The notes: generated from the letters alone by a model not told the origin. Shown: positions 8,192-35,441, counted from the stretch's first letter. The stretch: 64,000 bases of DNA from an uncultured Bacilli bacterium (GCA_910576925.1 CAJTKB010000005.1:3139-67138); one strand, 5' to 3'. Program-made: numbers and translations.

Positions 8192-8243
8192 ATTTATTCC
8201 TCACTAACCAATATATTATTAATTATATAATAACATATTTTAT

Positions 8244-10556: not shown

Positions 10557-10600
10557 AAGATACCACCCACTTTCAAAAATGTATTATATCATTAAATCTT

Positions 10601-11374: not shown

Positions 11375-11383
11375 ATCTTCTCC

Positions 11384-13612: not shown

Positions 13613-13668
13613 ATAATCACCTACTTACATCAATAGGGTCATAATATCCCCCTTAAAAAATATCTATA

Positions 13669-15459: not shown

Positions 15460-16076
15460 ACAGGTATCACCGTCCCAAAATTAGTATCCATTCCCCCATT
15501 TAAGAAATTATTAATAATTACTCGCAAATCTTCATTACTAGTTTGACTAGCATTAAGCCCACATCCAGCAAGTCCATTTATTAGTAATCTAATCTTTCTT
15601 TGTAATTCATCATCCTTCTTCTCTTTAAATAAGATATAATATTCAGTATCTACTACATTATTATTAATAAAACTATTAGCTTTCTCTATATCTTGAGAAA
15701 TTAGTTTACGAATAGCAGGAGAGGTTGATTTATTATATTGTAATTGCAACTGTGACATATAAACAGATATATCAACAGGTCTATCAGCAACAACAAGCCA
15801 AAATTCAAAATCTATCATATTATAAAAGTTCTTCAAGCTAATCAAAACACTACTTTGCATATCCTGATCAAGTATAAATATATTACGAGGAGTTATTTTA
15901 ACACCAGTAACTTTATATTTATCATCCGTTATAATCATTCCATTTTGTATTGCTCTAATAGGCAACCAATTTTCTGTAAATGGACTTGTATTATTTTTTG
16001 TCTTTTTCATCGCTAATTGCACACCAACCTTTCCATATATATCTTTGTCTATGGGAAAAAAATTCAACTGCCTCAA
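15456..16076 (-). CDS. Probable N-terminal domain of a split VirB4
   Basis: 206 aa ending ...GTVIPV, immediately followed (stop/start overlap GTATGAGT) by the VirB4 ATPase ORF. 206 + 596 aa is about 800 aa, the usual VirB4 size. Confidence 0.45.
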   Translation of the reverse strand: MRQLNFFPIDKDIYGKVGVQLAMKKTKNNTSPFTENWLPIRAIQNGMIITDDKYKVTGVKITPRNIFILDQDMQSSVLISLKNFYNMIDFEFWLVVADRPVDISVYMSQLQLQYNKSTSPAIRKLISQDIEKANSFINNNVVDTEYYILFKEKKDDELQRKIRLLINGLAGCGLNASQTSNEDLRVIINNFLNGGMDTNFGTVIPV

Positions 16077-16308
16077 TAATTATTACCAGCATATTATGAT
16101 AATTTGGCACTGGTATTACCAAACAACAACAAACAATAGCAGGACTTAGGGCAAATACTACTAGCCCTGTAGAAGTAAGTGGCACAAGTAACATAAATAA
16201 TACAGTTAAGCTTACTCCTGAACCTAAAATTATCAAATCGATTGTTCTAAAAAGTCCAAAGATAAGTTCTCCTTTTTTTGTATTAGCAGGTATTAAATAT
16301 TGATTCAT
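15991..16308 (-). CDS. Small two-TM membrane protein, VirB3/ConD/Orf17-like
   Basis: 105 aa with two hydrophobic helices, directly upstream of VirB4 and overlapping its start, as in Tn916 orf17-orf16. Confidence 0.4.
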   Translation of the reverse strand: MNQYLIPANTKKGELIFGLFRTIDLIILGSGVSLTVLFMLLVPLTSTGLVVFALSPAIVCCCLVIPVPNYHNMLVIIIEAVEFFSHRQRYIWKGWCAISDEKDKK

Positions 16309-16337
16309 TATATATCACACCCTTTTTTATTCTATAT

Positions 16338-18425: not shown

Positions 18426-18445
18426 AACCCCACCTCCTTATATAC

Positions 18446-19252
18446 TTACTTTATACCACAAACTTGATCACCACTAGTGCCAAATACTAAATTAAGTATT
18501 AAATTAGCAAATAATGGTAAGAAAAATAATCCAATAGCACACAAAAGTCTAATTCCAAACTTTTTCTGCACTTTTTTCATATTTTCATCATCATTAGAAA
18601 GAATTGATTTAGTAAAATCAATTGAACCTAAAAGTATCACTAAAATAGGACCTAATATTTTAATATAATTAAATAATTTTTGTAAAAATTCAACTACACT
18701 ATTTCCAAGAACTTGATCACAAGAAACAACTGGATCTCTTGAAATATCTAATCCACCAGATAAATTCCCAGAATTATTATTGTTAGAATCATTTCCATTA
18801 ACAGTTACATAAGCACTATTATTAATACTATTAAGCTCAACTACTTCATGTCCACTTTTTCCAGGAGTTAAAGATTCAGCCTTATCAGTCATATCAGCTT
18901 TATTATAAAAGGCATATACTCTAAAAGTATTAGGTATAAAACCCCAATTTACATTATAAAAAACTAGAGCATAATTTGGGCATACTTCACTAGTCTTCTG
19001 CCCTTTAGCTCGACTTTTATCAAAATTTAATACTTTTTCTCCATTAGTTACAGCCTTACCTTTATAGTAAGTAATAGTTCCTCGAGCTATAGAATAATTA
19101 TCATAAATATCAAACTCATATTTAGTACCACCATCACTACTTGCATATGAACAAGTAGCTAACTTATTTTTTGCATAGGTACTAATTGGAAAAAATAATA
19201 TAAATAAAGCAATAAATATATATATAATTTTTCTACAAATAAATTTATTCAT
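18446..19252 (-). CDS. Secreted protein with a C-terminal VirB2/TrbC-like TM hairpin
   Basis: Signal peptide (ILFFPISTYA), a 170-aa extracellular domain, then LVILLGSIDFTKSILSNDDENMKKVQKKFGIRLLCAIGLFFLPLFANLILNLVF, paralogous to the C-terminus of the next gene. Confidence 0.5.
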   Translation of the reverse strand: MNKFICRKIIYIFIALFILFFPISTYAKNKLATCSYASSDGGTKYEFDIYDNYSIARGTITYYKGKAVTNGEKVLNFDKSRAKGQKTSEVCPNYALVFYNVNWGFIPNTFRVYAFYNKADMTDKAESLTPGKSGHEVVELNSINNSAYVTVNGNDSNNNNSGNLSGGLDISRDPVVSCDQVLGNSVVEFLQKLFNYIKILGPILVILLGSIDFTKSILSNDDENMKKVQKKFGIRLLCAIGLFFLPLFANLILNLVFGTSGDQVCGIK

Positions 19253-19344
19253 CAGTACTCACCCCAATTTAGGCAATATCAAATTTATTATATCAGACAA
19301 AAATAAAAATAGCAATTACAATTACTATTTTCTATATATTATTT

Positions 19345-19725
19345 CTATTCATCAGCTCTGCCCCAACAAGTAGCCCAACTTTCAGCATTTCCTACATCAT
19401 CACTATCACTATAATTAGCAACTATATTAAATACTAAAGAAACAATTGTTGTCATAAAGAAAATAACAACAGCATATAAAATTCTCTTTATTAATCTACT
19501 TTGAGCAGCTTTTACTTCCTTATCTTCACTTGATAAAACAGCCTTACCTAAATCAATAGTACCTAATAAAAGCAAAATTATTGGAATACCCATTTGAATC
19601 AATGGAAAAACTCCAAGTTTAATAACTCTAATAATAGGTAAAATATCCTTACACATATCAGCTTTTGCTGCTATTAGCATTAAACCATTCATTAATATCT
19701 CTCCTTCACTAATATTATGATACAA
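19345..19725 (-). CDS. Small membrane protein with VirB2/TrbC-pilin-like topology
   Basis: ILLLLGTIDLGKAVLSSEDKEVKAAQSRLIKRILYAVVIFFMTTIVSLVF: two hydrophobic helices separated by a charged loop, aligning with the C-terminus of the 18446..19252 product. Confidence 0.5.
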   Translation of the reverse strand: MYHNISEGEILMNGLMLIAAKADMCKDILPIIRVIKLGVFPLIQMGIPIILLLLGTIDLGKAVLSSEDKEVKAAQSRLIKRILYAVVIFFMTTIVSLVFNIVANYSDSDDVGNAESWATCWGRADE

Positions 19726-19755
19726 AATATAACACTTTTTGTCAATTATTATACG

Positions 19756-20736: not shown

Positions 20737-21219
20737 TCACCTTTTAAGAACTCTTATTTCTTTAGTAGAACCAGTTACTGAAAACTGATTAATATGTGGA
20801 AACAAAAGATTAAATATTGGAATATCTATACTAACAAATGTTTTCACATCTATATAAGTAGTTTTATACTCACTAACATTAGTACCATTAGAATCACCAC
20901 TCATAGTATTATCACTACTAGATTTATGTTCTTTATAACACCAACCAATATTGTTACTATCTCTATCATATCCACTATTACCACAAGTATTAGTATAATT
21001 ACTAGAAGCACTATAGCCAATAGATTTAGCATATTCTCTAATTTCTTCCTGTGCATCATCTGTAATTACATTATTATGCTTTTCAAGTACATTTATAGTT
21101 TTATTTTTCATCTTAAAAGCTTTATTATAGTTAGTATTAAAAGCAAGAAAACCACTTATAAGAATTATTACAAAAAATACAAAGCTTACAATCCAAATAC
21201 TACCTAAAGACTCTCGCAT
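20737..21219 (-). CDS. N-terminally anchored protein, paralog 1 (possibly TadE/pseudopilin-like, non-canonical)
   Basis: MRESLGSIWIVSFVFFVIILISGF..., shared GWCYK motif with the next ORF. No G/xxxxE prepilin motif. Confidence 0.4.
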   Translation of the reverse strand: MRESLGSIWIVSFVFFVIILISGFLAFNTNYNKAFKMKNKTINVLEKHNNVITDDAQEEIREYAKSIGYSASSNYTNTCGNSGYDRDSNNIGWCYKEHKSSSDNTMSGDSNGTNVSEYKTTYIDVKTFVSIDIPIFNLLFPHINQFSVTGSTKEIRVLKR

Positions 21220-21238
21220 CTAATACCTCCTTAAATTA

Positions 21239-21712
21239 TTAATCCATAATAGGAATTTGACTAGTAGTTCCAGACATCCAGAAAAATTTAAATCTACTTA
21301 ACATCTGTTTAATTACTGGAATATTTAAATTAACAAACACTACTATATCAACAGTAAACTTCTTAATTGGTAATTCACCTAATTCAGAACTTGATACTAC
21401 TGGTGCATTTTTCTTATAACACCATCCTATAGGTTCACCATTATATGTTGGACAAGTATAGCCTTCTGCTTCAGCTTTTCCTAAAGCATCTTGACCAGCT
21501 CTATATCCAACAGACCTAGAATATCTATAAGTTGCCTCTAGCATATCATTATAACTAGTATTTCCCTCATATTTTTCTAAATATGATAAAACGTTATTCT
21601 TAACTCTATATGCTTTTGTATAATTGATAGCTAGCGAAATAAATCCGCTAACTAACATTATAAAGAAAAAAAGCAAGGTTAAATTTAAATAAGTACCTTT
21701 GGCATCTCTCAT
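21239..21712 (-). CDS. N-terminally anchored protein, paralog 2 (possibly TadE/pseudopilin-like, non-canonical)
   Basis: MRDAKGTYLNLTLLFFFIMLVSGF..., GWCYKKN. Paralog of 20737..21219. Confidence 0.4.
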   Translation of the reverse strand: MRDAKGTYLNLTLLFFFIMLVSGFISLAINYTKAYRVKNNVLSYLEKYEGNTSYNDMLEATYRYSRSVGYRAGQDALGKAEAEGYTCPTYNGEPIGWCYKKNAPVVSSSELGELPIKKFTVDIVVFVNLNIPVIKQMLSRFKFFWMSGTTSQIPIMD

Positions 21713-21724
21713 AAAACCACCTCA

Positions 21725-21883
21725 CTATGGTTCAGTATAACTATTATTGCTAGTAACATCCCACTGATTATTAATACTGTCCTTAATTCTTGGCCAAAGA
21801 ATCACTGAAAAGAATACAGAAATAGCAGTAATAGCAATAATTGTAACTACTGTCATATTTAACTCTCCTGAAGCTTCTTTCAT
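21725..21883 (-). CDS. Unannotated 52-aa single-TM ORF, candidate Flp-like pilin
   Basis: Found by manual translation: GGAGAG RBS 7 nt upstream of the ATG at 21883, MKEASGELNMTVVTIIAITAISVFFSVILWPRIKDSINNQWDVTSNNSYTEP, stop TAG at 21727..21725. It sits between the TadC-like gene and the two anchored paralogs. Below the 60-aa cutoff of the ORF track. Confidence 0.45.
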   Translation of the reverse strand: MKEASGELNMTVVTIIAITAISVFFSVILWPRIKDSINNQWDVTSNNSYTEP

Positions 21884-21947: not shown

Positions 21948-22739
21948 CTACATTGCAGAACCAAACATTCCCATCATAGCAATTAAAAGTATTAGCATAA
22001 CAAATACACCAGTACAAACAAGCATTACCATAGTTTGACTTTCCATTTTTTCAAGACGCTCTTTATATTTTGTTTCTCTGGCTTTTTGTTGAAGTGAAGA
22101 AACACTTCTTGAAAACATCATAAGACGTTCCTGTTTTCTCTCTTGAGAACCAATTCCTAAACGATATAAAAGTCTCATCATACGCATAGAGTCACGTACT
22201 GGATATGTATTTGCAAACTCCATATACGGATCAACTGAAGCATCTCCTGAATTAATTCTATCAACCATCTTTTTTAATCCTGGTTGAAATATTTCTGGAG
22301 CATCTTCTATTGATTTACCAATTGCAACAGGAACTGTATAATGTTGTACAAGTATTTCCAAACTCTTTAAATAGTATGGCAACATTATATCGATTTCATG
22401 CAAATGTCTTTTATAATAACTCTTTAAATTCATATAATTGGATTTAAAGACAAAATATGCAACAACAAAGCAAACAACAATATTTAACATACTAAAACTA
22501 TTTAAGAATAAAACCATCATAGCAGCACCACCAATAGCAGCAGTACTTATTCTCTTTTGAAATAAAACATCTGGATCAGCCTTAGTACCATACTTCATAT
22601 AAACTAAAAACTCATAATCATCTTCTCTTAAATTCTTTAAAAGTTTTTCATTATCCTTAGCAAATTTTTTAGTATTAATTGTATTATTATAAACAAGTAC
22701 ACCTAATATTAATGCACCAAATATAAATATCTCAAACAT
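21948..22739 (-). CDS. TadC-like inner-membrane platform protein (T2SS-F-like topology)
   Basis: 263 aa: N-terminal TM, a TM pair around residues 63-100, a cytoplasmic domain, and a C-terminal TM. Adjacent to the TadB-like gene and CpaF. Confidence 0.5.
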   Translation of the reverse strand: MFEIFIFGALILGVLVYNNTINTKKFAKDNEKLLKNLREDDYEFLVYMKYGTKADPDVLFQKRISTAAIGGAAMMVLFLNSFSMLNIVVCFVVAYFVFKSNYMNLKSYYKRHLHEIDIMLPYYLKSLEILVQHYTVPVAIGKSIEDAPEIFQPGLKKMVDRINSGDASVDPYMEFANTYPVRDSMRMMRLLYRLGIGSQERKQERLMMFSRSVSSLQQKARETKYKERLEKMESQTMVMLVCTGVFVMLILLIAMMGMFGSAM

Positions 22740-23641
22740 TATTCAGCACCTACATTCTCATTATAATATTTTTCACCCTTTAACAAGAAACCTGAATTAA
22801 CAAGTATAATTGCATGTAAGAATAATTGTATATACCATTTTTCTAAAAGAATAATATAACTTTCTTTTCCAAGTAAGTATTGAACAAGAAGTGTAAGAAT
22901 ATAAAGCATAACTCCAAATTGCAAAAACTTTCTATGAAATGTTTGTCTATCAATTCTATCTCTATACACTCCTTCAACAAGAGTATCTATATCAAGTTGC
23001 ATTTGTTCCAAACTATCTGCTGTATTTCTTGCACCTTCTTTAGTAATTTGCAAGAATAATTGATGCATATTTTTCACAATATAGTATGGATATAATTGAT
23101 TAAAATATGCAAGAGACTCATCAATACTACCATTTTTATAAGCAAGTTCTATCATTCTATCAACATCTCCTGCTACAGGATCTTCCAAAAGTCCAGATTC
23201 CCTAACTCCTTCAAGTGATTTAACAAATGATTGAGTTGTAGCAAATTCCATAATAGTATTACTAGTATATACTTGTACTTGTTCGAAAATAAACTCACTA
23301 TACACTCTATTACATCTTAAAAACGAAATATAAGGAACTATCATTACTCCAAAAATTACATATAAAATAGCTATAATTAAATTATAAAAATATAAATATG
23401 CAATAAGTCCTAAAAATCCACCAATCAAAACAGCTTGTATAACATATTGTCTAGCAGTATATTCTTGACCTAATTGTTTAGTTTTTTCACGAACTTTTTT
23501 ATATGAATAAGGAGCAAATTTATCATACAAAACAGTTACCTGATCATTTATAAAGTGCACAGCATTTTTACCATTATAGCCACGATATAAGATAACTAAA
23601 ATAGCAATTACTAATACTATAAATAATTCCATAAACTTCAC
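22739..23641 (-). CDS. TadB-like inner-membrane platform protein (T2SS-F-like topology)
   Basis: 300 aa with the same 1 + 2 + C-terminal TM arrangement around a cytoplasmic domain. Its start overlaps the TadC-like stop. Confidence 0.5.
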   Translation of the reverse strand: MKFMELFIVLVIAILVILYRGYNGKNAVHFINDQVTVLYDKFAPYSYKKVREKTKQLGQEYTARQYVIQAVLIGGFLGLIAYLYFYNLIIAILYVIFGVMIVPYISFLRCNRVYSEFIFEQVQVYTSNTIMEFATTQSFVKSLEGVRESGLLEDPVAGDVDRMIELAYKNGSIDESLAYFNQLYPYYIVKNMHQLFLQITKEGARNTADSLEQMQLDIDTLVEGVYRDRIDRQTFHRKFLQFGVMLYILTLLVQYLLGKESYIILLEKWYIQLFLHAIILVNSGFLLKGEKYYNENVGAE

Positions 23642-23649: not shown

Positions 23650-25245
23650 TTATTGATTTTCACTAGGTAAAACAGGATTTATCATAGATGAATTAACAGA
23701 ATTAAATGGAACCTGTTCATTATTATTAATGATAGAATCTTCTACTAAATTAGTGCCTAAATTATTTAATATTTGATTATTTTCACTAATATTATTCATA
23801 TTTACTTCAGGAATACCTACATTCATATTAGATATTGCAATATCACTATTATTATCCTGAATGGAAATACCATTATTAGTAACTGGATTAACACTAGTAG
23901 CTTCATATTCTATATTATTTGGACTATTTGGTATCACTTCTTGTACAACATTTTGAACAGCTTCTTCTACTACAGGAGATGAATTATCTATAATATTACT
24001 GCTCGGAGCATATGCTGCATAATATTTATTATCATTATTAATTTCTACACTATTATTTTGAGTAACATCAACTTGCCCACTTTTAGTCTCTATATTATTT
24101 ACATAAACTTGATCATTAAAATTATTGTTATCTAAATTTACTGATTGTAAATCTCCACTTCCCTCATCAGAATCATTTAATGGATCATCCTCCAAATGAT
24201 TTACTATTTGTGAAACATCAACATTCTGATTTTCAAGATATTCAAGTAAATGTTTAGAAGGTTTACTCATAATAGGTGATTTGCCAAATATTTTTCTATA
24301 AATTGTATGAGATTGAGGCTTATTATTCTCATCAACATAAAATTCAACTACTTCATCTAACTCACGATGAAATTTACCATACTGTTTAGAATAATAAGCT
24401 TTAATATGAACACCTAATTGTACATAACGATATATTGTAGTTAAAAACTGATCAACATCTAAATCCGTTTCCATCAAACTATAAAGACGATAAGGAATAG
24501 CACTAGCTTTATCAGCATGAATTGTTGACAAAATATTGTGTCCTGAAGATATTGAGTTACGAACAGCTGAAACGGCTTCAGCACTACGAACCTCTGAAAG
24601 TAGAATCCATTTAGGATTCTGTCTCATACAAGTAACTAAAACATCAGTATAAGAAGCTACATTATTTGTCTTCATTGCAACAATATCTCTTTGTGGAAAG
24701 ATCCTATCTAAATGAAGCTCTAAGGTATCTTCTATAGTAATAATTTTTTCACTCTCTTTAGTATGACTAGCCAAATATTTAACAAACTCAGTTTTACCAG
24801 AACCTGTTTCTCCAGCAACAAGTATATTACAATGGCCCTGAACACATTTAATTAAGAAATCATGTATATCAGCAGTAAAATAGTCATCCTTCAAAAGTTT
24901 TTCTTTCTCTAATCTAATTTTAGCAGGAGTTTTACGTATAACACAAGCTATACCATTAGTAGCAATAGACTCATCTACGAAATTAAGACGTAACTCTGAG
25001 CTTTCAGCATCAAGAAATGGTTTAGCATTATTAAAAGTTGTACCCATAACGTTAGAACATTGGAAAGCAAGCTTTTCCATAAATTCTGGTGTACAACTTG
25101 GAATTTCTACTCGTAAAGACCCCTGAGTTAGAGAACGAATCCATATTTGACCAGCATTACAATATGAGATATCTGTTATATCATCATTATCAAGTAACGG
25201 TTTTAAAGGACCAAAGTCCAATTTATCAAAAATACTCTCTTGCAT
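23650..25245 (-). CDS. CpaF/TadA/VirB11-family secretion ATPase with a long Asn/Gln-rich C-terminal extension
   Basis: Walker A VAGETGSGKTEF, Walker B region WILLSEVRSAEA, His box GHNILSTIHADKASA. The last roughly 190 aa are N/Q/S-rich low complexity. Confidence 0.75.
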   Translation of the reverse strand: MQESIFDKLDFGPLKPLLDNDDITDISYCNAGQIWIRSLTQGSLRVEIPSCTPEFMEKLAFQCSNVMGTTFNNAKPFLDAESSELRLNFVDESIATNGIACVIRKTPAKIRLEKEKLLKDDYFTADIHDFLIKCVQGHCNILVAGETGSGKTEFVKYLASHTKESEKIITIEDTLELHLDRIFPQRDIVAMKTNNVASYTDVLVTCMRQNPKWILLSEVRSAEAVSAVRNSISSGHNILSTIHADKASAIPYRLYSLMETDLDVDQFLTTIYRYVQLGVHIKAYYSKQYGKFHRELDEVVEFYVDENNKPQSHTIYRKIFGKSPIMSKPSKHLLEYLENQNVDVSQIVNHLEDDPLNDSDEGSGDLQSVNLDNNNFNDQVYVNNIETKSGQVDVTQNNSVEINNDNKYYAAYAPSSNIIDNSSPVVEEAVQNVVQEVIPNSPNNIEYEATSVNPVTNNGISIQDNNSDIAISNMNVGIPEVNMNNISENNQILNNLGTNLVEDSIINNNEQVPFNSVNSSMINPVLPSENQ

Positions 25246-25288: not shown

Positions 25289-26104
25289 TTATTCCATACC
25301 ATCTGTCCATACAGTAACACTATTAATGAAATCTTTTATATCATTACTTGAAAGTTTTAAATCACCTGGGTTTGTTTTTAAACTTTCAGCTGTTGGAACA
25401 GGACTAAGTTCAGTACTATAATTCTTTAAGTATCCTGCTTTCTTTAATAATATATAATGTTCTTCAGGAACAGCAAATATAAGCATTGCTGGAACAGAAT
25501 TCTCTTCAACATTAGAGAAAACATTTTTACCATTAGCATCTCTTACCGCAAGAACTTTTACATTCTCAAGTAATCTACCAACCATTACTTTACCATTATT
25601 AGGATCATTTTCATCAGTAGATGAAGCATAAGTAGCTTTAAAATAAAGATCAATATAATTACCTGGATAAATTGAATTACTGTAAGTAGTTGTTATATTA
25701 ACTGTCATATAATATAGAACATATCCTTTTGGATAATCAAGTATTATACTATCTGGTAACTGATCCTTTTCAACAACTACACTTTGATAAAATAAACTTC
25801 CTTGAGGTATAACAGTATCTGCCCTAGCATATTTATCAATAACTTGTTGTTTAGATCTAACAACTTCACTCTTTAACATTGCTGGAGGAACCTGTGTTTC
25901 TCCTACCATATCCTCAGTAATTTGAGTACTAGGATTAATTTCTTGTAAAGCATAAGGTACAGTTATAGGATGTGTTGCCTGTTGCACACGCCAATTATAA
26001 AATATATACAACACAACAATTGCCGCAATTACTCCGACAATTGTTACTGTATTTTTATTCGCTAAAAACTTTTTCAAGCCAACCGTAATATTATTCATTT
26101 TCAT
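25289..26104 (-). CDS. CpaB/RcpC-like pilus assembly protein
   Basis: N-terminal TM, then a SAF-like region and VLAVRDANGK...AMLIFAVPEEHYILLKKAGYL, typical of the CpaB C-terminal domain. Confidence 0.45.
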   Translation of the reverse strand: MKMNNITVGLKKFLANKNTVTIVGVIAAIVVLYIFYNWRVQQATHPITVPYALQEINPSTQITEDMVGETQVPPAMLKSEVVRSKQQVIDKYARADTVIPQGSLFYQSVVVEKDQLPDSIILDYPKGYVLYYMTVNITTTYSNSIYPGNYIDLYFKATYASSTDENDPNNGKVMVGRLLENVKVLAVRDANGKNVFSNVEENSVPAMLIFAVPEEHYILLKKAGYLKNYSTELSPVPTAESLKTNPGDLKLSSNDIKDFINSVTVWTDGME

Positions 26105-26117: not shown

Positions 26118-26606
26118 CTAGTTAATATTATTAACACTTGTTATCTTCAAATCTTTAATATATTCTTTATTTTGGTTTGTAATAGCAATATTAGTTTTAT
26201 TCTTACTTTCTAATATCATATCAACATTAGTAGTAATATCAAAAGATTCGCCTTCCTTAAATTTTTTTATAAGTTGAGTTTCCTTCTTAGATTCAATCTT
26301 AACACTCACTTTAGGAGGAGTCTCATTAATATCATATACCTTAATATTATAATCTCTTGAGCCATCTACAGAAACAGCAAATCTTTTTATAAAACTCTCC
26401 ATAAATTTTTCTTTATCCATTCTAATAGCACCAAACTGGCGATAGTATGCAAGATCTGTTGCATCATTCATTGCAGCTTCAGTTGTTTCTTTCAAAAGAT
26501 AATAATCAAGTTCTGCACCAGTCTGTTGACTATTGATAAGACTTATACTGTAAAATCCAAGAACAGCTATCAAAATAATTCCGATAGATAACATCGCTTT
26601 ATTCAT
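26118..26606 (-). CDS. N-terminally anchored hypothetical protein
   Basis: 162 aa with a single N-terminal TM. Function unknown. Confidence 0.5.
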   Translation of the reverse strand: MNKAMLSIGIILIAVLGFYSISLINSQQTGAELDYYLLKETTEAAMNDATDLAYYRQFGAIRMDKEKFMESFIKRFAVSVDGSRDYNIKVYDINETPPKVSVKIESKKETQLIKKFKEGESFDITTNVDMILESKNKTNIAITNQNKEYIKDLKITSVNNIN

Positions 26607-26626: not shown

Positions 26627-29600
26627 CTATCTAATACTCTGAGCACTAGATAAGAAACTAATTAACTCATCATCTGAATTGGTACGTCCACCTAAAGTAA
26701 TATCACAGCCATTACCACCAGATGCTATATTATTACAAGAAAGACCATTATCAGAAGGATATTTAGTAGCACCATGACTTCTTATATAACTACTTCTATA
26801 GTACTTGAAACTAGGAATAGTATTTTCATTATACTTTTTAGTATTGTCACTCTTAACAACAGCTAAATACTTTGTACTATCACCTTTAATTTCTTCAAAC
26901 TTTCCATCAGTATAAGATGTATATGAAAATTTAGAATCTTTAGCTTCATTTTTTATTTTTCTAATTTGTTCCTTTGTTAAATTAATTTCATAATCTACTT
27001 CACTCTCATCATAAACGTTAGAGTTTTCTATTTTTTTAACAAGTGTTGAAGGAGTAACTGGGTATCCTGCAATTGAAAGATTTGTTGCATTAACACTCCA
27101 GTTAAACCCTTCTTTTCTTGTTCCTTCTGCGGCATCAGCCATTTTATCAACATAACTTAATCTTGTTGGTGAAACACTCTCAGTACTTAAAGAGCTTGTC
27201 TTAGTTTGTGGAAACATAGTCTTTGGTGAAATTGATTTAGTTGTATAATTATCAACTGGTGTTTTTCTATTTGCTTCACAACTAGATCCTGTACAAGGAC
27301 TACAAGAGGCACCTTCACATTTATTTGTAATATTGTCACAACCTTCAGCAAACTCACATACATTATCACAAGAGTCACCTTTACAAGTTGGAGTATAATC
27401 ATTAGCAGCATAGAAACATCCAGAATTTAAATTCCAATTATATTTACCAAAATCAGTAATCTTAGCAAATATATTATAAGTTATATCTTTTGATTTATTT
27501 CCAGCCCATTCATCAAATGTTTTATTAGTAGTACCAGCTTTATAATATTGATACCAAGTCCACCAATGAGCATTAACATTCTTAGCAGTAAGTGGTGTAC
27601 AATAATTTCCTATCTTAGAAGTGTACCATTTACCTTCAGACTCTTTTGGCTTATCATATACAACTTCGCCATTCTTATTATTAATCCAAGCACCAGGGAA
27701 AGTAATTATACTATGATACATATCTGTTTTAGTTCCACTACCTGAATTATTAAATCCAGTTGAACAAGTTCCACCATTATATTTAAGAATTCTATTATAT
27801 TCTAATTTAGAATTATCAATAAATGTATTTTGTTGATTATTATCATCTTTTCTAATACAGTTTCCATTACTATCATAATTTCCACTATCACATTTTTGTT
27901 TATCTGCACCAGTTTCTACATCATTATTTACTGCTATTGTAAAGTTTGTAGTTTCTGTATTACAATTAGCTACTACTGCTTCAATACATTTAGTAAGAGC
28001 ATCTATATATTTATTAACATTAGATACATAATCAGATTCCGCTTTTTCCTTGTCTAAGTAATAACAATTTCCTCCAGTATAACTTTTTCCGCTATTTATC
28101 CATTCACAAGTTTCTTGACAAACTGTACTTCTCTTAAATCCATTACTATCTGGATAATAATGACCAGTTCCACCAGGTCTACCTTTGTAACAACCATTTG
28201 CAGCACGACAACTAGCAGCAGGAGTAGAACTACAAGTAGTAGAACCCCAAATCCAACTATAACCATAAGCATTACATACTGTTCTAGCAGTTATTGATTT
28301 ATCTCTAAAATAATAGTATCCATATTTATTCCACTCACAAGAACCTTTAGCAGTATATGAAATTGTCTTACCATTCATAGAATAATTACCAGTAATATTA
28401 TCATTAACATACTCATAGATCTTACTAATTACACTAGGATCAGATAAAGGATCTCCTCCTGGGCAACTATTACCTCCAACACTACCACCAGATAATAATC
28501 CCATCCTAGTAGCAAGTGTTATTGTATCAATACTATATATTTTTCTATTAATTTCATCTATTGTTAATTCAGACGATTTTACTAAATCACTATAATTTTT
28601 ATTATCAGTAGAAACATTATCAAGAGTAGATGTCTTTTTAGTAGTACTTTTCTTTGTACTTTCACTAGTTTTAGTTTTCTTATTATAAACAGAATTATAA
28701 CAACTATCTATACACTTTTGAGAATATTTACCACCATCACAAGAACTAATACAACTATCAAAATCTTCAGTTGGACCTGCTTGATTTTGATAACCTGAAC
28801 CACCTGCAGGAACTCCATTAGAACCATAACAATAAGGATATACCTCACAAGGAACATAATTATTAATATCAGGGAAATTATTGAAGGCATCATCACCATT
28901 GCCACCATTACCATCTCCACCTAGACCAGTAACAACACATTCCACATTACTTTTAACCTCAACTTCATAGGTAAAACACTGACCTGCAATAACTGCAACA
29001 GGAGGTCCATAAGATATAGTAAGAGTTTCTCTACATTTAGTACCACAAACTTTCTTAGTAGTAGTTTTTCTATCTGCTACTACACCATCTCCTAATACTA
29101 TATCAGCATTAATATTTTTTGTCTCAATATGATATAAATATTGGAATGTTTTCTCATTTTTAGTACTACAAGTTAACATAGAACTACTATTAGCTCCAAG
29201 AGCTTTATAATCCACCTTTTTAGTATCTTTAATTTCTTTCCATTTTGAATCTAATGCTGGAAGATCTTTAGAAAAAGCAGTATAGCTTCCATCACCTTTA
29301 GTAGAATCTGCAAACTTTTTATAAGTATTATTATAAAAATCTTCTAATGATTTCTTTATTTTATTTAAATTATCTTTAGACATATTATAACTACTACCAA
29401 AACAAGGAGCCATAGCCTTCTTTACAAGAGTAGCCATTCTACTATCAACAGTATTAACAAAAGATGTAGCCCAATCACATGCCTCTTTATTAGCAAGAGT
29501 CTTTTCAATAGTCGCATTACTTCTTTGATTATCATGTGTAACATGTTCTATTTTTAGCCAATAACTACAATTAGGAATATTTTCATCTACTTCTAACATA

Positions 29601-30034
29601 ACGATTACATAAAAGTCAGATACTCCATTAACTGTATAAGGGCTTTGCTTAACCTCATTATGTTTAATAACATAATTACCACTAACTCCATTAGCAATAT
29701 TTCTAGAACCAGCTCCTTTAATAGCTTTATTTGCAATCTTTTTGAGTTTAGTATTAGATTTATCAGAAAGATCAGAATCACTTATTAAATTTTCTGGAAC
29801 TAACCATATAGAATATTTACCATTTCCTAATTCTACTTCAACGTTTTTTAACTTTTCTCCATCTGAACTAGAATTCATAGAAAATTTAGCACTAGCACCA
29901 GAGCAATATCCTTCTTTTTCAGCTTCAGCATAAACGTCAAAATTTTTAACGATAATATTCATAGATAAAATTAATGTTAAAAATAAACCAACCCATTTTT
30001 TATTCATAAAATTATATTTATGCATAATCATCAT
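26627..30034 (-). CDS. Large secreted, extremely cysteine-rich protein (about 60 Cys); putative adhesin or effector
   Basis: Signal peptide (MNKKWVGLFLTLILSMNIIV, probable start near 30007), then dense Cys clusters (SGCFYAANDYTPTCKGDSCDNVCEFAEGCDNITNKCEGASCSPCTGSSCE...). No C-terminal LPXTG/NPQTN signal and no hydrophobic tail. Confidence 0.7.
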   Translation of the reverse strand: MMIMHKYNFMNKKWVGLFLTLILSMNIIVKNFDVYAEAEKEGYCSGASAKFSMNSSSDGEKLKNVEVELGNGKYSIWLVPENLISDSDLSDKSNTKLKKIANKAIKGAGSRNIANGVSGNYVIKHNEVKQSPYTVNGVSDFYVIVMLEVDENIPNCSYWLKIEHVTHDNQRSNATIEKTLANKEACDWATSFVNTVDSRMATLVKKAMAPCFGSSYNMSKDNLNKIKKSLEDFYNNTYKKFADSTKGDGSYTAFSKDLPALDSKWKEIKDTKKVDYKALGANSSSMLTCSTKNEKTFQYLYHIETKNINADIVLGDGVVADRKTTTKKVCGTKCRETLTISYGPPVAVIAGQCFTYEVEVKSNVECVVTGLGGDGNGGNGDDAFNNFPDINNYVPCEVYPYCYGSNGVPAGGSGYQNQAGPTEDFDSCISSCDGGKYSQKCIDSCYNSVYNKKTKTSESTKKSTTKKTSTLDNVSTDNKNYSDLVKSSELTIDEINRKIYSIDTITLATRMGLLSGGSVGGNSCPGGDPLSDPSVISKIYEYVNDNITGNYSMNGKTISYTAKGSCEWNKYGYYYFRDKSITARTVCNAYGYSWIWGSTTCSSTPAASCRAANGCYKGRPGGTGHYYPDSNGFKRSTVCQETCEWINSGKSYTGGNCYYLDKEKAESDYVSNVNKYIDALTKCIEAVVANCNTETTNFTIAVNNDVETGADKQKCDSGNYDSNGNCIRKDDNNQQNTFIDNSKLEYNRILKYNGGTCSTGFNNSGSGTKTDMYHSIITFPGAWINNKNGEVVYDKPKESEGKWYTSKIGNYCTPLTAKNVNAHWWTWYQYYKAGTTNKTFDEWAGNKSKDITYNIFAKITDFGKYNWNLNSGCFYAANDYTPTCKGDSCDNVCEFAEGCDNITNKCEGASCSPCTGSSCEANRKTPVDNYTTKSISPKTMFPQTKTSSLSTESVSPTRLSYVDKMADAAEGTRKEGFNWSVNATNLSIAGYPVTPSTLVKKIENSNVYDESEVDYEINLTKEQIRKIKNEAKDSKFSYTSYTDGKFEEIKGDSTKYLAVVKSDNTKKYNENTIPSFKYYRSSYIRSHGATKYPSDNGLSCNNIASGGNGCDITLGGRTNSDDELISFLSSAQSIR

Positions 30035-30827
30035 CTACTCCTTTCAATATTTCTTTTATTTCTTTATAATTACTTTTTTCAGTAACATCATAATCATAAC
30101 CTTTATTCTTTTCTATAAGTTTTGCATCAACTCTAAGTTGCATATCGCTTCTTCCATTAAATCTAGTACAAGTAATTAATGAAATTATCTTATCACTTTC
30201 TGAAACATCAACATCAAACTCAAAATAACTACTTTTCTGCGACTTTTCAATGTATTTCTTCAAATCTTTTTTAGTATAAGAAGTTATAGAAGTATCAACA
30301 TCATCTTTATCAATAAGAGATACAGAAAATATTTGATATAAATCATTTTTACCATTTAATGTGTATTGAACATATTTATTTTCTTTACTAAAGTCATAAT
30401 ATATAAATGACATTAGCTGTTCAAACTGATTCATTCTTTCATCTCCTACCAAAGGCTGACTTGAGACATTTCTAACATTGTGTCCTAATATTGTAAGAAA
30501 GTTTTCATCATCTTTAGGTGAAACATTAACCCAAACATAACCATCACTTTTAAAAGTTTCCATCATAGTATCGCTATACTCAATTATTGGATAATCAATA
30601 TTAGTTCCTTGTACTCTTATCCAACCAACAACTTTCTCATTACTATATTTTTTCTTTGCTTTAGTAACACTACTTGTCCTCTCTTCTATTTTATAAATAG
30701 GAAATAAAACTCTTCTCAAATTCATTTTCCTAAATAAGTAAAATAAGATAAGTAGTATAAAAAGAGATATTAATATCATAATAAGTAAGTTTTTAATCAT
30801 TTTGCTTCTTATACCTTTTCCCATCAT
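30018..30827 (-). CDS. srtB: Class B sortase
   Basis: N-terminal TM, then VGWIRVQGTNIDYPIIEYSD, LTILGHNV (His), ISLITCTRF (TLxTC Cys) and MQLRVDAKLI (Arg). These align with the S. aureus SrtB motifs. Confidence 0.75.
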   Translation of the reverse strand: MMGKGIRSKMIKNLLIMILISLFILLILFYLFRKMNLRRVLFPIYKIEERTSSVTKAKKKYSNEKVVGWIRVQGTNIDYPIIEYSDTMMETFKSDGYVWVNVSPKDDENFLTILGHNVRNVSSQPLVGDERMNQFEQLMSFIYYDFSKENKYVQYTLNGKNDLYQIFSVSLIDKDDVDTSITSYTKKDLKKYIEKSQKSSYFEFDVDVSESDKIISLITCTRFNGRSDMQLRVDAKLIEKNKGYDYDVTEKSNYKEIKEILKGVDDDYA

Positions 30828-30838: not shown

Positions 30839-32611
30839 CTAATCACTAACTTTATATGGCTCTTTCATAGTACCTTTTCCACTTTTTATAGTAATACCTT
30901 CTTTGAAATATGCTACAAATCTAAGATTTGCTGTTCCAGACATATAATCATTAGTATCATAATAAACTGTACCATTATCAGATGATAAATATCTAACATT
31001 ATTTTTATTAGATGAATTAATATACCAAGTAGGTATTACAGAACTACTATACATATCATATAAGTTAGGAGCTGAAAATTTGACATTATATTTCTTTTCA
31101 GTCTTTTTTCCACTATAAGATGATTTATTTTCATATATTGGAACTACAACAGAGTGCTTTTCAAAATATGATGTTTTAATATAACTGCTAACTGTATTTT
31201 CTAAATTATAACCTATATTTCCTTTTTTATTTGGATTATAAACCTTACCATCACCATATTCGAACTTATCTTCTGAAATATCTCCTGCCACAATTACTTT
31301 AGCATTTTTTCCATCAGTCTCAACAATACGATATAATATTCCAGCATATTCTACATATTCTCCACTGTATCTTTTATTTAAATCTTCTCCTGGCTTACCT
31401 GTTTTAAAGTCACCTATATCATATGGATCATCTGCAGTACCACTACCATCAATAATTTTTATATTCTTTTTTAAAACTATACTAGGTCTTACATTAAAAT
31501 GATTTTTTCTACTATATTCTAAATATTTAGATTCTTGATTGAAGAAATTTTTTCTAGTTGTCCAAGCATTCTTATCATCTAAACTATTAGAAGTCCAATT
31601 AATAGTATTAGTATAAAGATAACTCTCCCCCTCCTTTTGGGAACTATTATACTCATTTATCGACAAAAGTCCAGCATTTTTTTTGTTTTTCTCTACTTTA
31701 CAGTCAACTTTGGTGTCAACTGAATTTTTACCAACATCATCACTACACCATACACTTCGCTCTTGAACAAAGTCTTTTGAGCTTTCAGCTAAATGCTCAT
31801 AATAATAATCATTTAACCATTTATCAATTGAGTTATAATCAACTTGACTAATATCTTCTGCACTAACAATTTTTACTGTACCATCATCATTTAAGCGAAC
31901 TATTCTAAACAATTGTCCAGAAAATTTAATATAATTATTAACATCTAGTCCTTTATATATTCCATCATTATTAGTACCATTTAATATTGTTTGTTTTAGA
32001 CTCTGACTAACTGTTACTTTTCTAGTAACTGAAGTTTTATTTTCAAAACTATCAGTAGCTGAATAAACTATTGTATATTCACCAACCTTTGTTGTATCTA
32101 TATCACTCTTAATTATAACTGATGAAATATCTATATTACCATCTGTTTTATCCTTTACACTTTTTACTCCAGGATCCTTAAAATTAGAACCTTTTTCAAC
32201 TTCCATTTCAACATTACCATTAAGTTTTATTTCAGGGCCTTTATGATCAACTCTAGAACTCATAAAGCCACATTGTAAATATACATAATATTTAAGTTCA
32301 CCAGATTGTTTTTTTACTTTAACCCAACTTTTTTTCAAATCACACTCTTCACCACTATAGGCGCCTTTTAAAGCTTCTTTGATATAACTTTTATCTAAAA
32401 GTGTTATTCCACTAACTGTAGCCATTTCCCCTTCTCGTGGAACTCTGTTAGCATTAAGTTGAAAAAATCTTTCTCCAGCTTTTCTCATAATATTTTCATT
32501 TGAATTAAATTTTACTAGTGGATAGATAATAATTACCCATAATCCAAGAACAATAACTAATGCTATAACTAAAATAGATAATATACTTTTATTATTTTCT
32601 TTCTTTTTCAT
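30839..32611 (-). CDS. Membrane-anchored extracellular protein, member B of the repeated-domain family (two tandem domain copies)
   Basis: N-terminal TM. Copy 1: VNNYIKFSGQLFRIVRL...GSGTADDPYDI. Copy 2: EYVEYAGILYRIVETDG...GKGTMKEPYKVSD at the C-terminus. Confidence 0.7.
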   Translation of the reverse strand: MKKKENNKSILSILVIALVIVLGLWVIIIYPLVKFNSNENIMRKAGERFFQLNANRVPREGEMATVSGITLLDKSYIKEALKGAYSGEECDLKKSWVKVKKQSGELKYYVYLQCGFMSSRVDHKGPEIKLNGNVEMEVEKGSNFKDPGVKSVKDKTDGNIDISSVIIKSDIDTTKVGEYTIVYSATDSFENKTSVTRKVTVSQSLKQTILNGTNNDGIYKGLDVNNYIKFSGQLFRIVRLNDDGTVKIVSAEDISQVDYNSIDKWLNDYYYEHLAESSKDFVQERSVWCSDDVGKNSVDTKVDCKVEKNKKNAGLLSINEYNSSQKEGESYLYTNTINWTSNSLDDKNAWTTRKNFFNQESKYLEYSRKNHFNVRPSIVLKKNIKIIDGSGTADDPYDIGDFKTGKPGEDLNKRYSGEYVEYAGILYRIVETDGKNAKVIVAGDISEDKFEYGDGKVYNPNKKGNIGYNLENTVSSYIKTSYFEKHSVVVPIYENKSSYSGKKTEKKYNVKFSAPNLYDMYSSSVIPTWYINSSNKNNVRYLSSDNGTVYYDTNDYMSGTANLRFVAYFKEGITIKSGKGTMKEPYKVSD

Positions 32612-32643: not shown

Positions 32644-34224
32644 TTATTTAATTTTTAAAGTATACCTTTTATTTCTAAGTGTATATAAAATCGATATATC
32701 ACTAGAATCAAGTATTTTACTATCAACCATTATAAAAATATCCCTTCCTTGATAGCTAATTCCAATAGCATCAACTATATTTGCATAACGTACTCTACCT
32801 TTACTATCTTTATATTTAATTCTACCATATTTAGTAGAAAAGTCAATAAATTCTTCTCCCTCAAAATCACTAGATGAAAAGCTAATTTTCAAGATTTTCT
32901 TACCTTCTCTTGCACTAACTGTTTCTACACTAGTTGCACAAACTGAATCACTTGGACAAAAATATCTATTATAACTAAAACTTGTATTAATATCTGTTGA
33001 AGTTGTTCTAATCTTTTTATCCTCTAAGTATATATAATCAAAGTTTATTTCATCACCTATCTTATATTCACCTGTATCTTTAACTTCTGATACATCAGTC
33101 ATTTTAAGTTTTACTTTTCTAAGATGACTACCAAGCTTTCCACCAAGCTCCTGATAATATAATACAAATCTATTTTTTCTTAACTTTTCCTTTACTCTAA
33201 ATACCAAGTACATTTCCCTTGACTTCCCTCCATACAAACTCACCTTTCCATCCGCTGGCTCTCCAATATCTGTAAAATATGAGTTATAGAAGGATTTATA
33301 TGTATAATCACTACCCCCATTCATTAAATGATATCTATCAAGATTAGGAGAAACTCTTTTATTACTTGTATTTTTTATATTTACAATAAGTACTACAAAA
33401 TTGTATCCCTCTTCTATCTTATTACCTGCTAAATCTTTATCTGTAATATAACTATCTTTTACTGTAATTTCATACATACCAGACTTAAAAGTCTTTCCTT
33501 GTTTATAGCTTCTATTTGTAACTGCAAAAAAGTAATATCCTTGATATAGTATATAAATAGATGATACAACAATAAGTATATTACAAATAAATGTATGTTC
33601 CTTATAAAAATAATATAGATTTCTCTTAGTCCTATTATATAATCTTATAATAGAATTTTTATCAAAATCAAAACTAATTTCAAATTCTTCTCTATCTTCA
33701 CTTGATAATTCTAAATATTCTTCATCTTTTTTAAAGTTAAACTTTTTAATATCTATTCCTAGTACTCTTATAATTAGTAATATAAGAATAGGATACTGTA
33801 AAAATTTACCTATTGTCAAAATATCTCGATATATTAAAACACCACTAACAGTTGTTCCCAAACTATAAGTATTAAAAAAATTACTAGTTAGTATTACTCC
33901 TATTAATAGTAATAAATATTCAAAAATATATAATATATATATCTTCCAAGGTTTTTCCTTTTTTCTAAGAAGTACAAGTAAAAGAAAACTTCCAACAATT
34001 ATAACAATTAACGCCAAATAAAGAAAAACTCCTACACGTGATGAAAATCTTTCCATACTAGCATTATAAGTACCATAACTAATATATTGTTTAACAAAAG
34101 CTGTAATAGAATTAATCTTAATCCAGACAAAAAACCAAAGAAAAAGAATAACAATATGTATTTTTCTAAAGTTCTTAATCAAAAAGGCATATGGCTTTCT
34201 AAATACCATAAGTAACCCCTCCAT
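32644..34224 (-). CDS. Polytopic membrane protein with a C-terminal extracytoplasmic domain, function unknown
   Basis: 526 aa with at least five N-terminal TMs and a large hydrophilic C-terminal half. It is the first gene of the co-oriented island gene string. Confidence 0.55.
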   Translation of the reverse strand: MEGLLMVFRKPYAFLIKNFRKIHIVILFLWFFVWIKINSITAFVKQYISYGTYNASMERFSSRVGVFLYLALIVIIVGSFLLLVLLRKKEKPWKIYILYIFEYLLLLIGVILTSNFFNTYSLGTTVSGVLIYRDILTIGKFLQYPILILLIIRVLGIDIKKFNFKKDEEYLELSSEDREEFEISFDFDKNSIIRLYNRTKRNLYYFYKEHTFICNILIVVSSIYILYQGYYFFAVTNRSYKQGKTFKSGMYEITVKDSYITDKDLAGNKIEEGYNFVVLIVNIKNTSNKRVSPNLDRYHLMNGGSDYTYKSFYNSYFTDIGEPADGKVSLYGGKSREMYLVFRVKEKLRKNRFVLYYQELGGKLGSHLRKVKLKMTDVSEVKDTGEYKIGDEINFDYIYLEDKKIRTTSTDINTSFSYNRYFCPSDSVCATSVETVSAREGKKILKISFSSSDFEGEEFIDFSTKYGRIKYKDSKGRVRYANIVDAIGISYQGRDIFIMVDSKILDSSDISILYTLRNKRYTLKIK

Positions 34225-34321: not shown

Positions 34322-34732
34322 ATGAAAAACAAATTTACTAAAATATTTACAATTTTAATAATATTATTATTAACAACAGGTTGTAAAAATTCAATTATAG
34401 AGATGAAATACCAAGATATAAATAAAATGATAAAAGATAAAAAAACTTTTATCTTAATAGTAACTCAAGATAGTTGCATCCACTGTGAGGAATATAAACC
34501 AAGAATAAAAAAGATACTAAAGAAAAATAATCTTACGGCGTATAATTTAGATATAACTGATATTAGTGAAGATGACTATAATAAATTTAAAGATAATTAC
34601 GATTTTAAAGGAACTCCAACTACAATGTTTTTTAAAAAAGGAAAAGAAAATATGAGTGCAAGAATTATAGGAGCAGTTAATGATGAAAAAATAAAAAATA
34701 CTTTAAAATCACAAGGATATAATATAAAGTAA
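34322..34732 (+). CDS. Thioredoxin-fold lipoprotein (extracytoplasmic thiol-disulfide oxidoreductase-like)
   Basis: Lipobox LLLTTGC, CxxC motif SCIHCEEYKP, 136 aa. RBS GAAGGTAG. It is divergent from the island gene string. Confidence 0.7.
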   Translation: MKNKFTKIFTILIILLLTTGCKNSIIEMKYQDINKMIKDKKTFILIVTQDSCIHCEEYKPRIKKILKKNNLTAYNLDITDISEDDYNKFKDNYDFKGTPTTMFFKKGKENMSARIIGAVNDEKIKNTLKSQGYNIK

Positions 34733-34733
34733 A

Positions 34734-34766
34734 AAAACATCTCCAAAAATAAGAGATGTTTTTTTA
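34734..34766. terminator. Bidirectional rho-independent terminator shared by the lipoprotein gene and the convergent acidic-protein gene
   Basis: AACATCTC-caaaaataa-GAGATGTT with a T-run on the plus side and an A-run on the other side (read as a U-run by the minus-strand gene). Confidence 0.7.
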
Positions 34767-35072: not shown

Positions 35073-35126
35073 ATTCCCTCCTATATATATTTATATAAGA
35101 AAAGATCAAGCAAATTGATCTTAACA

Positions 35127-35414: not shown

Positions 35415-35441
35415 CTATAAAATCTCCTTTCACATATTTAG

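Follow-up and report, generated by a model that had tools for sequence, protein, structure and literature searches.

Analysis of a 64,000-nucleotide (nt) stretch from an uncultured Bacilli bacterium (GCA_910576925.1, CAJTKB010000005.1:3139-67138; hereafter the window) led us to an exported cysteine-rich protein, encoded on the minus strand at 26627..30034, which is the fastest-evolving component of a chromosomal locus that appears to join a Tad-like pilus module to a monoderm-type type IV secretion system (T4SS). We propose, at a probability of roughly one half, that this protein is an exported, disulfide-stapled surface subunit of the hybrid machine in uncultured gut Bacilli, and most likely its contact or adhesion (specificity) component. 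The proposal is built on a conserved export signal pattern, cysteine pairing statistics that also single out an unpaired cysteine, obligatory linkage to and co-duplication with neighboring genes, and a marked heterogeneity of evolutionary rates within the locus.

The open reading frame (ORF) starts with ATG and specifies 1135 amino acids (aa), in agreement with the initial annotation of the window. With a ratio of nonsynonymous to synonymous substitution rates (dN/dS) of 0.15 against an 89%-identical ortholog, it is under purifying selection and is therefore a genuine functional gene. An AAGGAG Shine-Dalgarno sequence lies directly 5′ of a cluster of ATG codons at 30034-30025, and the 3′ end of the upstream sortase gene, whose stop codon is at 30018-30020, overlaps the start of the gene. 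The N-terminus of the product (MMIMHKYNFMNKKWVGLFLTLILSMNIIVKNFDVYA, followed by EAEK after the predicted cut) displays the n/h/c layout of a Sec/signal peptidase I signal peptide of about residues 1-36, with a K/R-rich n-region, a hydrophobic core and V-x-A before the cut, which is predicted after V-Y-A. A V-x-A motif behind the hydrophobic core is kept family-wide (VYA, VDA, VNA, VLA and similar), and the segment is the least hydrophobic among all N-terminal segments of the locus, which fits a cleaved signal rather than an anchor. Neither a C-terminal transmembrane (TM) segment nor a sorting signal was found in the protein, and its mature part contains no TM segments. Thus the signal peptide, the lack of an anchor or sorting signal, the Firmicute origin (the closest contigs are labelled uncultured Bacilli) and the location between a pilus-like module (DUF5411, CpaB and ATPase genes) and a sortase gene, all of which had been read from the window at the outset, were confirmed. 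A prepilin-type (class III) signal was rejected, given a cut site of V-x-A, a non-conserved Gly and the weakest hydrophobicity in the locus; lacking such a signal, the protein was not assigned to the type IV pilins or pseudopilins.

Searches against Pfam, NCBIfam, PHROGs and PDB returned no match for the protein, and no Pfam domains were found in 24 homologs at E ≤ 0.1. A word-index search gave 24 clusters and two further such searches with alignments added one sequence (P0168), while an exhaustive profile search collected 659 family representatives (clustered at 50% identity); E ≤ 1e-30 was reached by 529, and most are of full length (900-1150 aa). The search for homologs and their genomic context that had been suggested with the initial annotation yielded a large family with a conserved locus order. 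All family sources are metagenomes or metagenome-assembled genomes (MAGs); the two genome matches are MAGs labelled ‘uncultured Bacilli bacterium’, and a further 79 loci came from human-gut, rumen and rodent-caecum metagenomes, on contigs of up to 578 kb. Within the databases searched, the family was thus found only in gut or rumen metagenomes and uncultured Bacilli MAGs. No relatives were detected in IMG/VR or on 72,556 plasmids, and these results, together with the missing PHROGs match, led us to reject a plasmid or phage origin. A name for the protein was not found in any source searched, and no literature description was found of the cysteine-rich family or of a locus combining Tad-like, T4SS and sortase genes. 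As judged from sequence comparison, the protein founds an unannotated family that has not been described before.

Structure prediction had likewise been suggested at the outset. An AlphaFold2 model, built on the 24-sequence alignment (24-25 sequences), contained confident blocks at residues ~60-250 (a β-sandwich plus helices), 290-400 (long β-hairpins) and 520-700, with a mediocre mean predicted local distance difference test score (pLDDT) of 60.7; modelling of residues 700-1135 alone gave a pLDDT of 42 and was not used. Foldseek comparison of the model with PDB and BFVD gave no significant match, the best E being 0.15 and the matches no more than generic FN3/Ig/adhesin sandwiches, and the variable N-terminal part, modelled as a β-sandwich, had FN3/Ig/adhesin-like folds as its only, non-significant, matches. 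PilY1/PilC was not recognized by Pfam and no propeller appeared among the Foldseek matches, a fold test that is weak given the poor C-terminal model. Self-BLAST revealed no internal repeats. EGF-like and Kazal-like modules, against which the cysteine spacing was to be compared, were rejected, as such spacing, repeats and Pfam matches were all absent.

Contextual evidence comes from gene linkage. The cysteine-rich gene is neighbored by the sortase gene in 80/87 loci, by the DUF5411 gene in 83/87 and by the CpaB gene in 76/87, missing neighbors occurring mostly at loci cut by a contig edge, and the order sortase, cysteine-rich, DUF5411 is invariable. Four loci that at first sight seemed rearranged (L025, L027, L035 and L036) carry a tandem duplication of this three-gene cassette, as exemplified by L036, with copies at 8206-12328 and 15765-19782. 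The L036 paralogs share 48% identity in the cysteine-rich protein, 56% in the sortase and 100% in DUF5411; therefore, each sortase has diverged together with its own cysteine-rich partner while DUF5411 was held constant, which is the pattern expected of a shared adaptor to a conserved machine. The full identity of the DUF5411 copies suggests either gene conversion or very strong constraint.

Evolutionary rates were compared as median identities to the window proteins in 21 distant loci having all core genes. The cysteine-rich protein had the lowest value (26.7%) and is thus the fastest-evolving component of the locus, followed by the 160-aa pseudopilin-like protein (35%), the Ig-like protein (37%), the DUF4352 protein (39%) and the sortase (42%); DUF5411 (52%), CpaB (58%), the TadB/C-like proteins (66-67%) and the ATPase (84%) were increasingly conserved. 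Within the protein, residues 37-280 are the least conserved, with the highest local dN/dS (0.48) at residues 77-151, and residues 321-480, 761-880 and 961-1040 are the most conserved. Given the linkage to sortase and DUF5411, the fastest evolution and a variable N-terminal β-sandwich, a surface specificity subunit is favored. The tip adhesin envisaged in the initial annotation is compatible with these data and would be retained in this broader form.

These well-conserved core domains, the large size, the rigidity conferred by disulfides and an obligatory linkage to machine genes with one copy per cassette could also befit a structural extracellular part of the channel or pilus base, that is, a wall-spanning conduit or cap with no part in target recognition, and monoderm T4SSs are without known wall-spanning parts (PMC4027160). 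We consider this possible but unlikely, as the protein lacks TM segments and as the fastest evolution in the locus, with duplication and diversification within genomes, would be unusual for a core channel.

The second line of evidence, in favor of a disulfide-stapled surface subunit, lies in the cysteines. The protein has 41 Cys (3.6%) rather than the approximately 60 first estimated, all of them C-terminal to the signal peptide, so that the mature count is odd. The dense CxC/CxxC clusters once described did not withstand inspection: CxC and CxxCH are absent, and only one CxxC (C911-C914) and five Cx3C occur. The 50-residue string quoted for them does exist at residues 871-920 with 9 Cys, but it is a clade-specific, gap-rich insertion, in which the Cys number ranges from 1 to 9 across the family, and not conserved core. 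Conservation was scored in 150 representatives sharing ~27% identity with the query, among which 13 Cys are invariant (C330, C334, C353, C366, C402, C428, C445, C643, C683, C691, C757, C812 and C873) and five more are present in ≥90% (C289, C396, C432, C441 and C639). Cysteine parity was taken from alignment-trimmed sequences, because raw counts in metagenome ORFs are too noisy from start-codon choice. The mature region contains 25-51 Cys per member, and the count is odd in 140/145 full-length members (binomial p = 2e-35), compared with 65-73/145 for the control residues W, H, M, Q and R. This indicates that cysteines were gained and lost in twos, and conservation at ~27% identity, parity and covariation together place the cysteines above chance.

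Consistent with pairing, the Cys count is even in regions 37-280 (usually 4), 456-630 (variable, 0-8) and 926-1135, while region 281-415 has exactly 7 Cys in 135/145 members, region 416-455 has 4 except in seven sequences with 2, and region 631-700 has 5 in 129/145. In the 150 representatives, C432 and C441 occur both in 143 and neither in 7, with 0 discordant; C715 and C726 both in 17 and neither in 133, again with 0 discordant; and C1100 and C1110 both in 84 and neither in 59, with 7 discordant. Covariation thus pairs C432 with C441 and leaves C428 and C445 as the probable remaining pair, giving a putative twin-Cx3C helical hairpin with which the helices predicted at 423-433 and 439-450 in the model agree. 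Between C643 and C683, a lone Cys (the query's C657) is present in 143/143 sequences having C396 and absent in 7/7 without it; as the two are kept or lost together, C396-C657 is assigned by covariation as an inter-domain disulfide. Since the pair is kept by the nearest neighbors of the losing sequences, the losses of C432/C441 and of C396/C657 each took place independently in at least 4 lineages. The odd parity of the mature count, pair co-occurrence, these repeated co-losses and the CIHC thioredoxin encoded next to the locus make extensive extracellular disulfide bonding, as claimed initially, a strongly supported property of the family.

After the other pairs were subtracted, region 701-925 remained the sole odd region (odd in 133/145). 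Its extra Cys are also paired, 132/150 sequences fitting even-pair patterns, and ten sequences carry only C757, C812 and C873 in this region. Therefore, either the invariant triad C757/C812/C873 contains one unpaired Cys or its three members form a ligand site. This feature had not been noticed at the outset, and the same holds for the junction of the Tad-like module with a complete monoderm T4SS described below. A disulfide partner in a second exported protein of the locus was rejected, since all of these have even Cys counts except for the catalytic Cys of the sortase: extracellular Cys are even in 29/29 and 18/18 homologs of the two pseudopilin-like proteins, the DUF4352 protein has one conserved Cys pair and the Ig-like protein two, and the sortase nucleophile is the only other consistently single extracellular Cys. 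Parity and covariation thus provide a partial, testable disulfide map and narrow the free-thiol candidate to C757, C812 and C873. Cys are reported to be excluded from exported proteins in Firmicutes (PMC2823432). The family, with 25-51 Cys per protein, paired gain and loss and, in this clade, a thioredoxin lipoprotein alongside, breaks this ‘cysteine excluder’ rule.

An unpaired triad Cys in at least 132/150 members, the invariance of K787, N821, N978 and E336 and the constant coupling to a Cys transpeptidase (sortase) could point to an extracellular enzyme (a protease, transpeptidase or cell-wall hydrolase) that uses this Cys as nucleophile and works with the sortase. No invariant His or Gln was found among the 150 representatives, making both a Cys-His protease dyad and a Cys-Gln thioester less likely; with no enzyme family or fold matched and a dedicated glucosaminidase already present in the locus, we hold an enzyme to be improbable. 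A thioester-domain (TED) adhesin was rejected, as neither an invariant nor a near-invariant Gln occurs in the 150 sequences and neither Pfam nor Foldseek gave a TED match. The secreted effector offered initially as the other option, a toxin delivered by or released alongside the apparatus, would account for the signal peptide, the missing anchor and the position in a secretion locus. It is disfavored as very improbable, because Sec-dependent export makes T4SS delivery needless, the variable part is N-terminal and the C-terminus conserved (the reverse of polymorphic toxins), the downstream gene encodes a conserved machine part rather than a variable immunity protein, and the protein has no toxin domains and co-duplicates with machine parts. 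The least credible alternative is a metalloprotein or redox protein in which the Cys bind metals or a cofactor instead of forming disulfides, for although the Cys content is high, the three invariant Cys are not all pairable and the organism is an anaerobe as judged from the nearby pyruvate:ferredoxin oxidoreductase (PFOR) and rubrerythrin genes, pairwise gain and loss with strict parity is a disulfide and not a metal-site signature, CxxCH and an invariant His are lacking, there is a single CxxC, and the protein is Sec-exported with a thioredoxin-fold lipoprotein adjoining.

For the favored surface specificity subunit, the following mechanism can be envisaged. The protein would be exported by Sec and cleaved after V-Y-A, as the family-wide signal-peptide pattern predicts, and would fold oxidatively outside the membrane, forming at least 9 conserved disulfides plus clade-specific pairs (20 are possible in the window protein), a pairing that is supported statistically. 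Disulfide formation may be catalyzed by the adjacent CIHC lipoprotein thioredoxin. Linkage, co-duplication and co-divergence suggest that the subunit docks via its invariant neighbor, the small DUF5411 protein, whose N-terminal helix is pilin-like, and that the dedicated, co-evolving class-B-like sortase acts on or with it. The fast-evolving N-terminal β-sandwich might then touch the target cell or surface, while the disulfides could provide a stiff scaffold that withstands gut proteases, and the unpaired Cys of the C757/C812/C873 triad, to which parity points, would be free to enter an intermolecular disulfide or a covalent link of another kind.

Several observations weigh against this proposal. 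Adhesion and a location on the pilus are read from sequence and context; neither sequence nor fold comparison linked the protein to known adhesins, PilY1, TraN or pilins, and the fast evolution would also be compatible with an outer component of an antigenic or structural kind. The quality of the structure model is mediocre, with a pLDDT of 60.7 (42 for the C-terminal half). The protein is without an anchor, a canonical sortase signal or a conserved PxT motif. A thioredoxin (Trx) or PedC-like gene lies within 4 kb in 19/39 judgeable loci, that is, a thioredoxin-type gene adjoins only about half of them. Moreover, the term ‘Tad-like’ derives from the ATPase, from a CpaB match below threshold, from the co-occurrence of DUF5411 and from the order of the genes, with the TadB/C and Flp candidates unrecognized by Pfam, and no prepilin peptidase (TadV/A24) was found in the 64-kb window.

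A more far-reaching version, which we regard as a rather unlikely speculation, is that the locus is a vertically inherited, lineage-wide and non-mobile cell-contact machine of uncultured gut Bacilli, a new hybrid that unites an orphan sortase with a Tad-like pilus and a monoderm T4SS, in which the cysteine-rich protein would be a covalently acting recognition subunit, linking to the machine or the target cell through its free thiol or a non-canonical sortase reaction. Were this true, it would represent a covalent recognition chemistry not described for pilus or T4SS adhesins.

With respect to the sortase itself, His116 and Cys220 are invariant, and the closest relatives are the class B enzymes from C. 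perfringens, C. difficile and S. aureus. No canonical sorting signal (LPXTG/NPQTN-type motif, hydrophobic segment and charged tail) was found in any ORF of the 87 loci. The cysteine-rich protein was not classified as a canonical sortase substrate, as it has no C-terminal TM segment and no conserved PxT in the linker at 918-975. There, ‘LFP’ is the only conserved element, and an internal sortase motif (‘SPKTM/FPxT’) was rejected because PxT occurs in only 51/150 sequences and is not conserved.

The genes of the locus form a block of ~28 kb (roughly 6998-34732; Table 1) on a single strand except for the thioredoxin gene. Their order is: DUF4352 protein, Ig-like protein, sortase, cysteine-rich protein, DUF5411, CpaB/RcpC-like protein, ATPase, two TadB/C-like proteins, the 52-aa protein, two pseudopilin-like proteins, a 324-aa protein, two T4SS_pilin-like proteins, VirB6/TrbL-like and VirB3-like proteins, VirB4 (two ORFs), glucosaminidase, a 257-aa protein, the VirD4 coupling protein and the DUF6273 protein. 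The ATPase matched T2SSE with 96.7 bits and the NCBIfam TadA and VirB11 models under their equivalog cut-offs, its nearest PDB entry being CpaF (2.7e-19), then FlaI and then VirB11. The TadB/C candidates have the right size, position and topology, with no T2SSF match. A gene for a 49-52-aa protein at the position of an Flp-type pilin also occurs in L003, L005 and L007; the 52-aa protein is without the Flp G/XXXXEY motif. TraC-like and TrbL_4 domains were recognized in L007. Hence the locus contains, as predicted from sequence, the TadA/CpaF ATPase and, at sub-threshold level, the CpaB/RcpC protein that mark a Tad system, as well as the VirB4, VirD4-type and VirB6-like proteins and cell-wall hydrolase that mark a monoderm conjugative T4SS, and on this gene content we classify the block as a hybrid, encoded on the chromosome, in which a Tad-like pilus module is joined to a monoderm-type T4SS.

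Table 1. Features of the locus and regions of the cysteine-rich protein.
Feature	Position	Strand	Description
Lipoprotein thioredoxin	34322..34732	+	Lipobox LLTTGC, active site CIHC; candidate extracytoplasmic thiol-disulfide oxidoreductase
Polytopic membrane protein	32644..34224	-	526 aa, extracellular DUF4352-like domain; conserved first operon gene
Surface protein	30839..32611	-	590 aa, N-terminal anchor, Bact_surface_Ig-like domain, two conserved Cys pairs
Sortase	30018..30827	-	Class-B-like, N-terminal membrane anchor; stop inside start of cysteine-rich ORF, overlap 8-17 nt by start used
Cysteine-rich protein	26627..30034	-	Predicted secreted disulfide-rich protein, 1135 aa, 41 Cys
Region of cysteine-rich protein	residues 37-280		Variable N-terminal β-sandwich/helical region
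Region of cysteine-rich protein	residues 281-415		Conserved β-rich core, 7 Cys
Region of cysteine-rich protein	residues 423-450		Putative twin-Cx3C helical hairpin
Region of cysteine-rich protein	residues 451-520		S/T/K-rich linker
Region of cysteine-rich protein	residues 520-700		Domain with 5 core Cys; C657 predicted to pair with C396
Region of cysteine-rich protein	residues 701-875		Domain with invariant triad C757/C812/C873
Region of cysteine-rich protein	residues 873-919		Cys knot, clade-specific; linker after
Region of cysteine-rich protein	residues 976-1135		Conserved C-terminal domain
DUF5411 protein	26118..26606	-	162 aa, one N-terminal TM helix, no Cys; directly downstream of cysteine-rich gene; proposed adaptor
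CpaB/RcpC-like protein	25289..26104	-	271 aa; matches of 27 and 36 bits, under curated cut-offs
Secretion ATPase	23650..25245	-	T2SSE/TadA/VirB11 family, closest solved relative CpaF
Two polytopic membrane proteins	21948..23641	-	300 and 263 aa; TadB/TadC position and topology, no Pfam match
Flp-like small protein	21725..21883	-	52 aa, hydrophobic (MKEASGELNMTVV...), below ORF-list threshold
Two pseudopilin-like proteins	20737..21712	-	157 and 160 aa, N-terminal TM helix
T4SS block, monoderm-type	8244..19725	-	Includes two T4SS_pilin-like proteins at 19345-19725 and 18446-19252
VirB6/TrbL-like protein	16338-18425	-	TrbL_4 match weak
VirB3-like protein	15991-16308	-	105 aa
VirB4	13669-16076	-	Two ORFs, 206 aa and 596 aa (P-loop), 4-nt overlap; AAA_10/TraG P-loop in 596-aa ORF
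Glucosaminidase	11384-13612	-	
VirD4 coupling protein	8244-10556	-	770 aa; PF02534/PF12696/PF10412
DUF6273 protein	6998-8191	-	397 aa, end of locus

The thioredoxin gene is the sole plus-strand gene near the locus and diverges from the operon. Related loci carry thioredoxin orthologs with CSHC or CVHC at the same place; more distant loci encode a PedC-like protein lacking CxxC in its stead, or have no such gene within 4 kb. Upstream of the thioredoxin gene, at 34764-36122 on the minus strand, are three small unannotated genes (102 aa and very acidic, 95 aa and 226 aa), which are conserved only in the closest relative, L003, and thus look like lineage-specific additions. DUF6273 segments occur in both the 397-aa protein and the glucosaminidase, and in many loci a tblastn search with the former also gave matches in the region of the Ig-like gene, pointing to a common surface domain. 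At 41923-42774 (minus strand), 7 kb outside the locus and adjoining the Mur ligase gene, a 283-aa fusion of T4SS_pilin (PF18895, E 6.7e-9) and an NlpC/P60 peptidase is encoded.

The locus is flanked by housekeeping genes for tryptophanyl-tRNA synthetase, RmuC, Mur ligase, YceG, RuvX, GreA and PFOR, and neither a relaxase nor an integrase was found among the scanned ORFs of the 64-kb window. Synteny is kept in essentially every locus to the contig ends, down to ~25% identity of the cysteine-rich protein, and the order holds through VirB6/VirB4. Because the distant loci L005 and L007 have the same genes in their upstream flank (peptidase U32, PedC-like protein and SpoU methylase), vertical inheritance at a fixed chromosomal site is suggested by these comparisons. 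The family marks an undescribed, widespread chromosomal machine in uncultured gut and rumen Bacilli. As for the window as a whole (1-64000), nearly all genes are on the minus strand, the GC content is 24-32%, and the GC skew is negative in every 2-kb window with a monotonic cumulative skew, placing it within one replichore; no Rfam match was obtained in the 64 kb.

Among described systems, DUF5411 has been seen next to CpaF/PilC in gut Clostridia (Roseburia, Ruminococcus and Eubacterium), in an uncharacterized operon predicted to be secretion-related (PMC9523054). That operon likewise places DUF5411 beside a CpaF-type ATPase; its description mentions no cysteine-rich protein, sortase or T4SS genes, and it belongs to Clostridia rather than Bacilli. 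PilY1, which is not a pilin, has about 1000-1200 aa and a Sec signal, and its gene lies among those for minor-pilin-like proteins. The cysteine-rich protein, whose neighbors are DUF5411 and the 157- and 160-aa pseudopilin-like proteins, may be viewed as analogous to PilY1/PilC, from which it differs in being disulfide-rich and associated with a sortase and a T4SS and in matching neither PilY1/PilC nor a propeller. Sortase-dependent adhesins are known from Gram-positive conjugation, namely PrgB of pCF10 and CnaC, with SrtD, of pCW3. Similarly, a sortase gene lies within the transfer locus in those systems, but adhesins of the PrgB/CnaC type are Cys-poor and possess LPXTG, a TM segment and a charged tail, whereas the protein studied here has 41 Cys and no sorting signal. 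Monoderm T4SSs are thought to rely on surface adhesins, not pili, for mating-pair formation (PMC4027160), and their cell contact and wall crossing are poorly understood; the cysteine-rich protein is a concrete candidate for that role.

Chromosomal conjugation-derived T4SSs with variable surface parts are represented by Trw of Bartonella, whose surface-exposed components have undergone tandem amplification and diverge far more rapidly than the remaining machine (PMC2883598). The duplicated cassette and the fastest evolution of the cysteine-rich protein resemble TrwJ/TrwL in this respect, although the analogy is between unrelated proteins, Trw lacks a coupling protein while the present locus has VirD4, and a diderm pathogen is compared with a monoderm gut commensal. 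For the proposed function, the closest analog is TraN of the F plasmid, an adhesin-like protein with ~20 conserved Cys that is served by the tra-encoded disulfide isomerase TrbB and for which intermolecular disulfides are suspected (PMC7555446). Under the reading as a surface specificity subunit, both would be exported, adhesin-like T4SS components. Their Cys contents are alike, with 22 Cys in 602 aa (3.7%) for F TraN and 41 in 1135 aa (3.6%) here, of which 18 are invariant or present in ≥90%, and a thioredoxin-fold protein is encoded in the same locus in each case, a likeness to be taken as analogy only. Homology to TraN (PF06986) was rejected, as no Pfam match was obtained in 24 members and hhalign of the 150-sequence profile against F TraN gave a probability of 0.06% (E 0.77). 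While TraN is an outer-membrane protein of diderms, its proposed counterpart is predicted to be a soluble, Sec-exported monoderm protein; it has twice the length of TraN, and its gene is coupled to those of a sortase and of a Tad-like module.

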